Source of the DNA: Bdellovibrionales bacterium
GTDB lineage: Bacteria > Bdellovibrionota > Bdellovibrionia > Bdellovibrionales > JAUICD01
Reading direction: 5' to 3'
Assembly: GCA_965203275.1 (NCBI GenBank)
Contig: OZ241865.1
Span: forward strand, 2,368,001 to 2,432,000
DNA: 64,000 nt
Part shown: positions 17,139 to 22,780 of the stretch, piece by piece
Layout: every line of letters begins with the position of its first letter
Position numbering within the stretch: the first letter of the stretch is position 1
The notes under the pieces: generated by a model
The model's database searches: none
Seen by the model: the letters and a program-made list of their open reading frames with translations, nothing else
Told to the model about the DNA's origin: nothing
Made by a program: the position numbers and the translations under genes

Positions 17139-17720
17139 CTATCTAAGTGATTCGAGTCCTAATTGCCCCGCTACCGTATCATTTGAAATGCTTGAACGAA
17201 TATTGGCTAGAAGATTCCAAAGATTAGTGAAGCCATCCTGTGTCAATACGATAAAGTTTTGCCATTCTCCAGAATTTTTCTGTTGCAAATATGTAAACGA
17301 TATACCTGCTACAATTGTGGAACCTACTAAAAGAGTCCCTGTTTTTGCCACTCTCATAAGATTCCTGAGATTTCTAAAGAAAGCCCTTATAGCAATTGTA
17401 GTAGCAGTAGCTCCTATCCCTAAAGCAGCAAAGGTGTATAGACTATCTTCTGATAACAAAGCTTTAATCTTACCATCATTAGTTAGTGTAGCTCCAGCCA
17501 GATCAGTTTGTAAGGCTCCTGTGTGATGAAGTAAGAACTGAGCTTCTGTCGCCGTTACCCTATCTGATTGAGCTACAGCTCTTCCTTGGGGTTTTTCTTG
17601 TGCTTTTGCACTTTTTGAACTTTGATGATGATCGTGTTTGGCTACTGTCTCTGGTGCAGTCGTGCATCCCACTGATATAGTCACCAAAGCAAATAATAAA
17701 AAGCTTAAATAATATTTCAT
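17139..17720 (-). CDS. Lipoprotein, family X member 1
   Basis: Lipobox ISVGC, GGAG RBS; paralog of 21914-22501. Confidence 0.85.
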   Translation of the reverse strand: MKYYLSFLLFALVTISVGCTTAPETVAKHDHHQSSKSAKAQEKPQGRAVAQSDRVTATEAQFLLHHTGALQTDLAGATLTNDGKIKALLSEDSLYTFAALGIGATATTIAIRAFFRNLRNLMRVAKTGTLLVGSTIVAGISFTYLQQKNSGEWQNFIVLTQDGFTNLWNLLANIRSSISNDTVAGQLGLESLR

Positions 17721-17733
17721 GATTGACTCCTTT

Positions 17734-18006
17734 TTAATTTATTGTTAGTTTATTGGTTTTTAAAATTGAATTGACATTGACAGCAATAAAACTGTCATAC
17801 AGTAAGCTTCTCTGAAGCTTGCTGTAGGCTTTAAATAGCTTAAAGCTTATGAAGTATCTGGGATTAAATGAATAAATTGTGATGAGAAGCACTTTGTTAA
17901 AGTGTATATGCTGGCAAAACCCTGTATTGCTAGAGAGAGAGAGAGAGAGAGAGAGAGAGAGAGAGAGAGAAGTAAACCTTTCAATGGATTGTGATGTTAT
18001 GAACAT
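17734..18006 (-). CDS. Putative phase-variable leader ORF with (TC)19 tract, read-through state (90 aa)
   Basis: AAGGAAGG RBS, ATG 18006, MFITSQSIERFT-(SL)n; stop lies 13 nt before the lipoprotein ATG. Confidence 0.55.
   Translation of the reverse strand: MFITSQSIERFTSLSLSLSLSLSLSSNTGFCQHIHFNKVLLITIYSFNPRYFISFKLFKAYSKLQRSLLYDSFIAVNVNSILKTNKLTIN
17932..17970. repeat. A(GA)19 microsatellite
   Basis: Counted directly. Confidence 0.97.
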
Positions 18007-18127
18007 GAATAAGTCCTTCCTTTTGTTTTTCAACATTGTGTTAAGGGAACAATTCCTTCTAATGCTTGAGTGCCGGATCCCGTCCCGGATAAAGTATATT
18101 TAAATACCCTTTCATTACTATTATCGG

Positions 18128-18313
18128 CTCAAAATATTGAATACTTTTATCAACTTTTAATTTTATCTAAAACTTAGTCTTTTGTCTTATGGTTTCTAAC
18201 ATGGAATTCTTCTTGTTTCACTCAAAATATTGAATACTTTTATCAACTTTTAATTTTATCTAAAACTTAGTCTTTTGTCTTATGGTTTCTAACATGGAAT
18301 TCTTCTTGTTTCA
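18128..18313. repeat. 93-bp tandem duplication
   Basis: Units start at 18128 and 18221, bounded by CTCAAAATA microhomology. Confidence 0.92.
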
Positions 18314-19082
18314 CTCAAAATAAATCATGCCTCTGTTTCCCTAAAATTGAACTAGCCTCTGGCTACTTTTGGGCAGTTAGCCCGACGGCTACCGCCGTCG
18401 ATCAAAGGCTAACCGCCTCAAAAGCTTGTTCAATTTTAGGAAGAAGAATCTCTTCGTCTCTTGACCACATGTTAAGGAAAAAGTTCCTTCTTACACCTTG
18501 GGCAATGACCGCAATGGCTTTCGCCATTGGCAAAATGCTCATTGCCTCAAAAATCTATGCATTTTGAGTAGAGGAGGATCCTTTTATTCCTCTACACCAT
18601 GTTAGGGAAACAAGATATGTCTCTAAAATGTTTTTGGAGAGCAAGCGGATTTACGAATAAGGAACTTTTTCCTTAACATGAAATTTATCCGGGATCTGGG
18701 ATCCGGGATCTGGGAGATGTTTCCTTAACATGATGTTAAAAAACGAGGAGATCCTCTCTACTCAAAATGAGCAGTTTTTTGCGGCATTGCTCTTTTTGGA
18801 CAGCGATAGCTGTCAGAGCAATGCCCAAAAACACACCAGAGGTGTGGCTCATTTTGAGTGAAACAACTAACTTCCTACTCAAAGTGAACAGGCTTTTGAG
18901 ACAATGACCATTTTGTCAAAGGCGAAAGCCTTTGCGGTCATTGTCTAAAAGTGACCAGAGGTCAGTTCACTTTGAGTGAAACAGAGGCTGGTTTATTTTT
19001 AGTGAGACAAACGTGGTCATCGCCAGAAAGTGACCAGAGGTCAGTTCATTTTGAGTGAAACAAACCACATTTAGTGAAAAAG
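18307..19082. repeat. Cluster 2 of nested palindromic elements
   Basis: Copies 18334-18480 (-), 18717-18865 (+) and 18871-18983 (+), plus fragments. Confidence 0.9.
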
Positions 19083-19128
19083 AAGGCATGATGGAGCATA
19101 AAGGCCGCTTGCTACGGCCCTTGTATTC

Positions 19129-21550: not shown

Positions 21551-21623
21551 AAAAGCTCCCTTATATATTATTTTAGGTTGATATTTGTGAATGACTGTCA
21601 GTCATCCTCTTTAATAATTTAAA

Positions 21624-21639
21624 AGCAATTTTCATTCCA
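21624..21639 (-). promoter_or_regulatory. Possible sigma54 -24/-12 promoter
   Basis: TGGAATGAAAATTGCT (GG-N10-GC), 74 bp upstream of the 21550 start. Confidence 0.4.
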
Positions 21640-21913
21640 AAAGTTAAAAACCATCTTATAGCTTTATTTACAATGGAATCAGCAGATATAGCTTTAATCA
21701 ATGAGTGTAAAGGGATATGTCATGTATGAATACAGTGACAAAATTTGTCATTAAGATATATTGTTATTGAGATTAAATGAGGGGAAAATATACCAAAGAG
21801 AGATATATAATTTAAAAGGTCTTAAATAATGTTCTAATAAGATCTCAACAACCTTATTTGTCTAATATGGATTGACAAATAAAGTTGTTGTTGCCTTTGA
21901 GGTCTAAGTGTAG

Positions 21914-22501
21914 TTAGTCGTCGAGGTCGAGTAGTCCTAATTCATTCCTTACCACGCCATTTGCAATACTGGCGCGAATAATACGTATAAGATTCCAAAG
22001 AGTAGTGAGAGACTCCTTTGAAAATACGAGAACACTTCTCAATCCTTCAGGGTCTTTCTTCTGCAAGTATTGGTACGAGATACCTGCTACAATTGAGGCA
22101 CCTAATGAAACAGCCCCTGTTCTTGTCATAAGACGCCTGAGATTTCTATAGAAAGCCTTTACAGCAATTACACTAGCAGTAGCCCCTACTCCTAAAGCAG
22201 CAAAAGTCCTTATACTCGCTGTTGATAACATAACACTGAACGCACCATCATCAGTTTGTGTAGCTGTACTCAGATCACTTTCTAATTCTGTCAATGCTCC
22301 TCTTATAAACTGAGCTTCATCTTGAGTGACAGGTTCTTCATGTTGATCTAATTGAGCTACAGTTCTCTCTTGGGCTTTAGGGGTTTTTGCACTTTTACAA
22401 TTTTGATGATGATCGTGTTTGGCTACTGTCTCTGGAGCAGTAGTGCATCCCACTGATATAGTCACCAAAGCAAATAATAAAAAACTTAAATAATATTTCA
22501 T
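21914..22501 (-). CDS. Lipoprotein, family X member 2
   Basis: First 33 aa identical to 17720 gene; divergent mature part. Confidence 0.85.
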   Translation of the reverse strand: MKYYLSFLLFALVTISVGCTTAPETVAKHDHHQNCKSAKTPKAQERTVAQLDQHEEPVTQDEAQFIRGALTELESDLSTATQTDDGAFSVMLSTASIRTFAALGVGATASVIAVKAFYRNLRRLMTRTGAVSLGASIVAGISYQYLQKKDPEGLRSVLVFSKESLTTLWNLIRIIRASIANGVVRNELGLLDLDD

Positions 22502-22705
22502 GATTGACTCCTTTTTTAATTTATTGTTAGTTTATTGGTTTTTAAAATTGAATTGACAGCAATAAAACTGTCATACAGTAAGCTTCTCTGAAGCTTGCTG
22601 TAAGTTTTAAATAGCTTAAAGCTTATGAAGTATCTGGGATTAAATGAATAAATTGTGATGAGAAGCACTTTGTTAAAGTGTATGTGCTGGCAAAACCCTG
22701 TATTG

Positions 22706-22780
22706 CTAGAGAGAGAGAGAGAGAGAGAGAGAGAGAGAGAGAGAAATAAACCTTTCAATGGATTGTGATGTTATGAACAT
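22706..22780 (-). CDS. Putative phase-variable leader ORF with (TC)18 tract, premature-stop state (24 aa)
   Basis: Same RBS and ATG as copy 1; reading frame hits TAG immediately after the tract. Confidence 0.5.
   Translation of the reverse strand: MFITSQSIERFISLSLSLSLSLSL
22708..22744. repeat. A(GA)18 microsatellite
   Basis: Counted directly. Confidence 0.97.

Follow-up and report, generated by a model that had tools for sequence, protein, structure and literature searches.

Can a simple-sequence tract that lies entirely outside the coding sequence of a surface protein decide whether that protein is made? This question is raised by a locus in a 64,000-nucleotide window (positions 2,368,001 to 2,432,000 of contig OZ241865.1) of a Bdellovibrionales bacterium, whose genome is a single contig of 2.57 Mb with a GC content of 35%. 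The minus strand carries two duplicated units, A and B, each running from a conserved upstream block through the ATG of a leader open reading frame (ORF) and a perfect TC tract to a predicted lipoprotein gene about 210 nt further on (Table 1). The original prediction, made from the letters of this DNA, held that tract length switches the lipoproteins through the leader, and our translations bear out its frame logic. In A, the leader peptide reads MFITSQSIERFT-(SL)n-SSNTGF... over 90 codons, and its TAA lies 13 nt 5' of the lipoprotein ATG (17720), adjoining the AAGGAG of that gene. In B, the leader runs into a TAG whose first letter is the final T of the tract and which lies 204 nt 5' of the lipoprotein ATG (22501); if the long frame of B were entered, as it is in translations at other tract lengths, it would end 14 nt before that ATG. 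The third frame also stops early, 126 nt (A) or 121 nt (B) ahead of the gene. One tract length in three hence places the leader ATG in the long frame, and the other two lead to stops 204–209 or 121–126 nt early. A fusion of leader and lipoprotein is impossible at any tract length in A and B, so the tract stands outside the coding sequence of the supposedly switched protein, which, as had been proposed, is itself not frameshifted. The segments from leader to lipoprotein ATG are identical at 202 of 211 positions, the long frames differing by one in-frame 6-nt indel, one synonymous codon and one non-synonymous codon. The TC-tract leader is a real feature of this locus, and its layout makes it likely to be phase-variable; the ON and OFF labels given to A and B are predictions from a single consensus assembly.

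A genome-wide look for further leaders added two more TC cassettes. Across the whole genome, perfect TC runs number 88 with four units, six with five and one with seven, after which come only four with 18–22 units. All four of these long tracts (37–45 nt) belong to one cassette type, A, B, C and D, which has in common the upstream block, the codons immediately before the tract, the TAG at the tract end and about 16 nt following the tract. Cassettes C and D are located before another paralogous pair, unrelated to lipoproteins A and B, with the gene 602 and 781 nt from the tract and hairpin repeats occupying the gap. These genes encode Cys-rich, secreted-looking proteins, each about 315 aa long (with 42% identity in their first 214 aa; no match in a Pfam search), and each is followed by a conserved protein of 101–102 aa. 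At present A is in the long frame (90 aa), B in the shortest (24 aa), C in the third (32 aa) and D in the long frame (81 aa), so that all three phases are seen among the four copies. Searches with the cassette DNA against 40 relatives gave two matches, of which one is no more than a TC/AG run in front of an unrelated gene and the other a 38-nt match to a ribosome-binding-site region. TC runs of at least 8 units were found in one of four same-family genomes, as three runs with unrelated flanks, and exact flank patterns had no occurrence in JGI metagenomes or in GTDB contigs. In a same-family genome (G002:C70:63166-63275) we observed an ATG followed at once by a TC run of 107 nt, which lies some 100 nt upstream of a gene; the flanks of this run are unrelated to the A–D cassette and its length may be an assembly artefact.

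The original prediction treated the leader as a separate ORF with a ribosome-binding site, and this view is upheld by the strength of the candidate Shine-Dalgarno (SD) sequences. SD strength was taken as the duplex energy with the genome's own anti-SD and referred to 1252 ORF starts and 4000 sampled intergenic ATGs. The leader sites reach −8.0 (A and B), −9.6 (C) and −11.1 (D) kcal/mol; an equal or stronger site precedes 2.4% (A, B), 1.4% (C) and 0.5% (D) of intergenic ATGs, and 23%, 10% and 6%, respectively, of ORF starts. In all four copies the leader ATG is in the same phase, and because the alignment contains three distinct SD sequences and N-termini, the starts look like separate solutions. 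The longest frame after the tract is also the same in all four copies (65, 63, 35 and 52 codons in A to D, versus 0 and 9–28 in the other frames), with no significant protein similarity between the A/B and C/D long frames past the first five codons. In shuffles (n=5000) the given frame stayed open as long in 0.9% (A), 1.7% (D) and 5.9% (C) of cases, and any frame did so in 2.4%, 5.6% and 16.5% of dinucleotide shuffles (n=5000), respectively. Of the 20 substitutions that separate C from D, 10 are synonymous when read in the long frame, against an expectation of 6.0 (P=0.03); the other frames give 5 of 20 and 4 of 20. We also compared B with contigs from four sequencing runs of three studies, aligned to the tract-free stretch 21560–22700 only. 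The sole indel listed in the long frame is the in-frame 6-nt one, and in the run from the third study the three substitutions in the B long frame comprise two synonymous changes and one missense change, with no stops. Leader products have no homologue among called proteins, and leader A has no Pfam match.

Table 1. Features of the TC-tract cassettes (window positions, except for cassettes C and D, given by genome handle)
Feature	Position	Strand	Remarks
Predicted lipoprotein A	17139..17720	-	193 aa, orphan family
Lipoprotein A own Shine-Dalgarno sequence, AAGGAG	17727..17732	-	just past leader stop
Leader ORF A, long frame	17734..18006	-	90 aa, predicted ON; ATG at 18006
Hairpin 2, leader A	17778..17797	-	-8.4 kcal/mol; only in A and B; weak U-tail
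Hairpin 1, leader A	17798..17826	-	-12.4 kcal/mol; core common to 20-copy dispersed repeat; U-run directly after absent
TC tract A	17932..17970	-	(TC)19.5, 39 nt; in mRNA a G-free (UC)n run, rut-like
Leader A Shine-Dalgarno-like sequence, AAGGAAGGA	18014..18022	-	7 nt before ATG
Dispersed-repeat fragment	18018..18093	-	between upstream block and leader A start; tail enters leader SD
Cassette A conserved upstream block	18100..18191	-	candidate promoter region
Predicted lipoprotein B	21914..22501	-	195 aa, 56-58% identical to A
B post-tract long frame	22516..22707	-	63 codons, open, now out of phase with leader ATG
B long-frame hairpins	22574-22602 and 22554-22573	-	
Leader ORF B, present short frame	22706..22780	-	24 aa, predicted OFF; ATG at 22780
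TC tract B	22708..22744	-	(TC)18.5, 37 nt
Cassette B conserved upstream block	22878..22980	-	candidate promoter region; 95% identical to A over 103 nt
Cassette C	G000:C1:393614	-	tract 41 nt
Cassette D	G000:C1:552665	+	tract 45 nt

Both predicted lipoproteins begin with a hydrophobic signal ending in SVG-C19 (lipobox assigned by eye), and the genome encodes signal peptidase II (family A8). Their coding sequences agree at 99 of the first 105 nt and at 341 of the remaining 483. The SD of the lipoprotein genes, at −8.4 kcal/mol, is in the top 19% of the 1252 ORF starts; it is locally weakly folded (−2.2 and −1.1 kcal/mol), with unpaired probabilities of 0.32 and 0.58 in folds of the whole leader. 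We found no match to the lipoprotein in Pfam or the Atlas, and a low-confidence structural model (mean predicted local distance difference test, pLDDT, of 55) had no match in the PDB at E<=0.001. A profile search drew in its own family and two weak matches, a large collection contained the family as four clusters with six members, none of 40 relatives had it, and a protein alignment gave one weak JGI locus confined to the signal region. Other assemblies contain further alleles or paralogues with 64–85% identity and the same N-terminus, and in one sequencing run a B-type leader is found upstream of a different coding allele. These comparisons fit a small variable family with a common, homogenised 5' cassette.

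The upstream block occurs in the genome only at the four cassettes, apart from a duplicate at cassette A, where an exact 93-bp tandem duplication (18128–18322) restricted to this cassette doubles most of it. The A block contains a sigma-70-like AAGACA-17-TAAAAT at 18188–18160 with nine of twelve consensus matches, a level close to chance in this region (27 such matches versus 21.1 +/- 5.0 in shuffles). No sigma-70 match of nine in twelve was seen between tract and SD in A or B, a near-chance scan that neither proves a shared transcript nor excludes an internal start. The distance from block to tract varies from 111 to 222 nt among the cassettes, and therefore a fixed promoter spacing tied to the block is disfavoured. 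A candidate sigma-54 site over the 3' flank of the tract was rejected by eye, as its spacing is too long and the site is not kept in C and D. The segment 18100–17971 gives 104 blastn hits in the genome, mostly over its repeat part, and no Rfam match was found for 17600–18400. Dense, nested dispersed hairpin repeats are present at 18330–19100, 22980–23230 and 23950–24820, pieces of which also occur inside the leaders.

Hairpins 1 and 2 of A and B lie beyond the two early stops, and the long frame passes through both hairpins. No canonical intrinsic terminator was found between leader and gene, both stems being devoid of a contiguous U-run, and in a permissive terminator scan of the sense strand hairpin 2 of B was the sole pass. 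Rho and NusG are both encoded, above their curated cut-offs; the Rho frame (G000:C1:517949-519181) is open for 570 aa against a model of 415 positions, suggesting an N-terminal extension. Rho utilization (rut) sites are described as richer in C than G, weakly structured, 60–90 nt in length and bound through YC-binding clefts (PMC12360218). The 80-nt windows starting at each tract rank within the highest 1% among 20000 random windows both for C minus G and for YC, and they fold weakly; that of tract A is in the top 0.4% for both counts. Rho-dependent polarity is thereby feasible at the cassette, as judged from its composition and the gene content of the genome. It is also our best guess at the mechanism, because the leaders showed no canonical intrinsic terminator and a strong ribosome-binding site (RBS) precedes each lipoprotein gene itself. 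The original prediction had named translational coupling or Rho polarity; the Rho part is feasible, with both factors present and a rut-like tract, and coupling is not supported as the main route because of the strong SD of the target genes, its weak local fold and the distances of 602 and 781 nt in C and D. A Ser/Leu-sensing attenuator was also considered and set aside, as all frames of (TC)n read Ser-Leu, cognate tRNAs for both CUC and UCU are encoded and nothing specific supports it.

On this explanation, a slipped-strand change in tract length would reset where the leader frame stops, and the position of that stop would gate transcription of the lipoprotein through Rho-dependent polarity. 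Transcription would begin in the conserved block, some 180 nt ahead of the leader ATG, and ribosomes would load at the leader SD. In the ON state, ribosomes in the long frame would follow RNA polymerase up to the RBS of the gene and shield the RNA. In the OFF state, the ribosome would be released at the tract end with about 205 nt ahead still untranscribed, next to the (UC)n run, which is free of G, and to C-rich RNA that folds weakly; Rho could then load and terminate transcription before or within the gene. The third frame would perhaps give intermediate expression, and the repeat-derived hairpins are possible pause sites. Each copy would switch on its own, and the lipoprotein sequence would remain constant. 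We consider it somewhat more probable than not that the leader frame controls the downstream gene by one route or another, all routes taken together; the specific form in which Rho polarity is the gate falls a little short of an even chance.

Several observations weigh against this explanation. A comparable open frame, of 65 codons and ending no more than 30 nt from a gene start, is seen in 37 of the 869 upstream regions compared, A and B among them, and such a frame is hence uncommon but not rare. The synonymous excess is modest and comes from the single pair C/D. The leader SD of A and B adjoins a dispersed repeat from which it may derive, and in folds of the whole leader it is mostly paired (unpaired probability 0.11 and 0.19). 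Once the tract is left out, the 80 nt that follow are just mildly C-rich (top 8–30%), and the tract resembles a rut site by virtue of its composition, so that this likeness adds no independent evidence. Further, the proposed shielding presupposes that transcription and translation are coupled in this lineage. Cassettes C and D strain the model: the D long frame terminates 622 nt before its gene and that of C is cut to 35 codons by a 4-nt deletion, leaving more than 500 nt untranslated even in the long frame. Since the long frames there end hundreds of bases short, with hairpin repeats between, read-through to the gene cannot work as drawn for A and B. These two copies may be decayed, or may be active only across the first part of the leader.

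The leader frame could matter through a different effector than Rho, namely hairpin attenuation of the kind known from the Streptococcus gallolyticus locus pil1, translational coupling or mRNA stability. In A and B, two to three hairpins are found 50–125 nt before the ATG, within the long frame and past both early stops, the third-frame stop ends 21 nt ahead of hairpin 1, hairpin 2 of B appears terminator-like in the permissive scan, and the long-frame stop abuts the SD of the gene. However, the stems are weak to moderate (−12.4 and −8.4 kcal/mol) and lack the contiguous U-run that the pil1 terminator is described as needing (PMC3894217), hairpin 1 belongs to a repeat present in 20 copies, and the whole segment does not fold clearly better than its shuffles (z −1.65 and −1.69). 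Coupling is further opposed by a lipoprotein SD that is strong and locally weakly folded, and overall we regard these routes as distinctly unlikely. It is a little less likely again that tract length and not frame is what acts, through a 5' untranslated region (5'-UTR) element (graded rut length, RNA structure or processing) or as a promoter spacer, with the leader ORF incidental. All four tracts fall within 37–45 nt and short conserved flanks border them on either side, and intergenic repeats upstream of Haemophilus influenzae hmw1A are reported to work through 5'-UTR structure and RNase III (PMC12721329). Yet an effect of length would not lead one to expect three different solutions of SD and ATG in one phase, nor a common longest frame; the variable distance of block to tract (111–222 nt) contradicts a fixed promoter geometry, and the sigma-70 scan found no nine-in-twelve match between tract and SD in A and B.

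The cassette could also be a relic of an intragenic frameshift switch, or a switch for a small leader product, with the downstream gene expressed whatever the tract length. In the poly-C genes of this genome the tract lies in N-terminal extensions of 45–70 aa fused to the gene, and the C long frame resembles such an extension in two related members of one poly-C family (G000:C1:287520 and 1916464; shuffle P 0.001–0.002), in a comparison in which 3 of 12 tests fell below 0.05 and no likeness to that family was seen for A or D. This likeness in itself suggests a possible common origin of intragenic and leader-type switches. Moreover, C and D are separated from their genes by repeats, the C frame is broken, and the synonymous excess of C/D would suit former coding sequence. 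The junction in C and D that bears on an ancestral in-frame fusion falls inside the head of a repeat, which leaves such a fusion neither favoured nor disfavoured. Against a relic stand the long perfect tracts kept at all four copies despite MutS and MutL in the genome, and the exclusion in A and B of fusion in any frame to a lipoprotein with its own SD, ATG and signal peptide. In addition, A and B agree at about 95% of positions across the leader and the first 105 coding nt, versus 71% over the rest; because 5' identity exceeds the rest and a B-type leader is found on another allele, the cassette appears to be kept or homogenised. Likewise against this explanation, the leader products are without a match among called proteins. 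Although unlikely on the whole, the relic explanation seems to us somewhat better placed than an incidental ORF or hairpin attenuation. Finally, the tract lengths, and with them the ON/OFF calls, might be consensus or assembly artefacts, given that dinucleotide runs are error-prone in assemblies and that a single assembly alone could be read for tract length. In runs of two studies the Logan contigs reach 23 and 26 nt into the tract before they end (by record lengths), so a long tract is real, and the cassette architecture is independent of its exact length; we consider an artefact highly improbable.

The original prediction implied that action through a leader ORF would be new, but control by a repeat within a leader has been shown experimentally for pil1/pil3 of S. 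gallolyticus by Danne et al. 2014 (PMC3894217), the one experimentally worked-out leader-ORF repeat switch in the literature we found. As described there, pil1/pil3 and the present cassettes (4/4 copies) have in common a repeat unit that is not a multiple of three, placed in a leader ORF that starts at an ATG behind an RBS of its own; changes in repeat number that shift the frame extend the leader in the direction of a surface-protein gene that is itself unchanged; and, in A and B as in pil1/pil3, the frames end before versus within or beyond an RNA structure. In the same account the pil1/pil3 repeat is a GCAGA pentamer and the intrinsic terminator, which has a U-run, is proven (PMC3894217), whereas the present system, known from sequence alone, has a TC dinucleotide, a rut-like tract, orphan lipoprotein-like targets and no canonical terminator. 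We have not filed it as a member of the pil1/pil3 class because the defining intrinsic terminator is not clearly present. A second point of comparison is offered by the Rho attenuators dependent on an upstream ORF, tnaC, speFL, cruR and mgtL, in which the leader ribosome shields or exposes the Rho loading site, as proposed here; their input, in the account of PMC12360218, is a ligand acting through ribosome stalling, whereas the input predicted here is a heritable stochastic frameshift. The stochastic Rho switches described in the same source are DNA inversions (E. coli fim, C. difficile flg), and its main text contains neither 'slipped' nor 'frameshift' (PMC12360218). Like the cassettes, hmw1A has a repeat, there a heptamer, transcribed in the leader of a surface gene, but that repeat is described as acting by length, hairpin and RNase III and not by frame (PMC12721329).

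The cassettes can further be set beside intragenic contingency loci, which have in common with them slippage at a 5' end, three frames and surface or secreted targets, as do the poly-G/C genes of this genome; unlike classical loci of this kind, the tract lies outside the target coding sequence and the long frame stops ahead of the gene's own start. Such intragenic loci reportedly include the CT repeats in H. pylori sabA, hopZ and oipA and the opa genes of Neisseria. A frameshift with Rho polarity is also said to occur in N. meningitidis siaD, which a look-up of the literature did not confirm. The vlp genes of Mycoplasma hyorhinis are reportedly lipoprotein paralogues whose 5' regions and signal peptides are nearly the same and include a slippery tract, whose mature parts diverge and which switch independently; their tract is said to be a poly-A run in the promoter spacer, as opposed to the TC run in a leader ORF seen here. 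Our literature search, which covered few subscription papers, found no repeat doubling as slippery element and Rho loading site, no dinucleotide leader-ORF switch and no report of phase variation in sponge-associated Bdellovibrio relatives.

The genome as a whole looks rich in contingency loci. A search with ObgE gave best matches of 40–50% identity spread over several phyla, with two Bdellovibrionales among 80, and did not place the organism. Despite its AT-richness the genome has 33 G/C runs of at least 9 nt (9–23 nt), many of them situated towards the 5' end of paralogous genes for secreted or prepilin-like proteins. In 17 of these runs, preceded by an SD-led upstream ATG, one frame joins the long ORF, and four of the 17 are in frame now. 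Several runs are situated in N-terminal extensions of 45–70 aa ahead of the signal region, and the window itself contains C12 at 29769 and G12 at 34739. MutS and MutL are encoded; perfect dinucleotide runs of 37–45 nt slip often. Lipoproteins A and B are not encoded by adjacent genes, being separated by an ankyrin protein and one of 478 aa. The 478-aa protein (20114–21550, minus strand) is secreted-looking, has no Pfam match and has four paralogues in the genome at 22–35% identity. The ankyrin-repeat proteins beside the lipoproteins (19129–19851 and 23232–23915, minus strand) have signal-like N-termini, more ankyrin-repeat proteins are encoded at 51799–57944, and repeat arrays of 99–102 bp occur later in the window. 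Just downstream of lipoprotein A is a putative transposase of the YhgA-like (Rpn) type with 12-bp C-terminal repeats (15847–16803, minus strand). The suggestion that the two paralogues are expressed alternately is not supported: nothing links the tracts, and one long with one short frame is expected in about 44% of cases for two independent three-state tracts by simple arithmetic. With nothing to couple them, independent and not alternate switching is to be expected.

At its widest, the proposal is of a portable cassette in which one (TC)n run would be both slippery element and Rho loading site, forming a heritable switch with three states (on, intermediate and off) before two unrelated secreted-protein families of a host-associated bacterium whose other switching would rely on ordinary G/C runs within genes; in this full form it is speculative and on the whole doubtful. 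Its immediate impact is limited, the organism being uncultured and the targets being of no known function. If true, it would be a second independent design of leader-ORF repeat switch, using a dinucleotide and no clear terminator, which would make the principle a general one that may run through Rho. Surveys confined to repeats in coding sequences and promoters would, in that case, overlook switchable surface genes.

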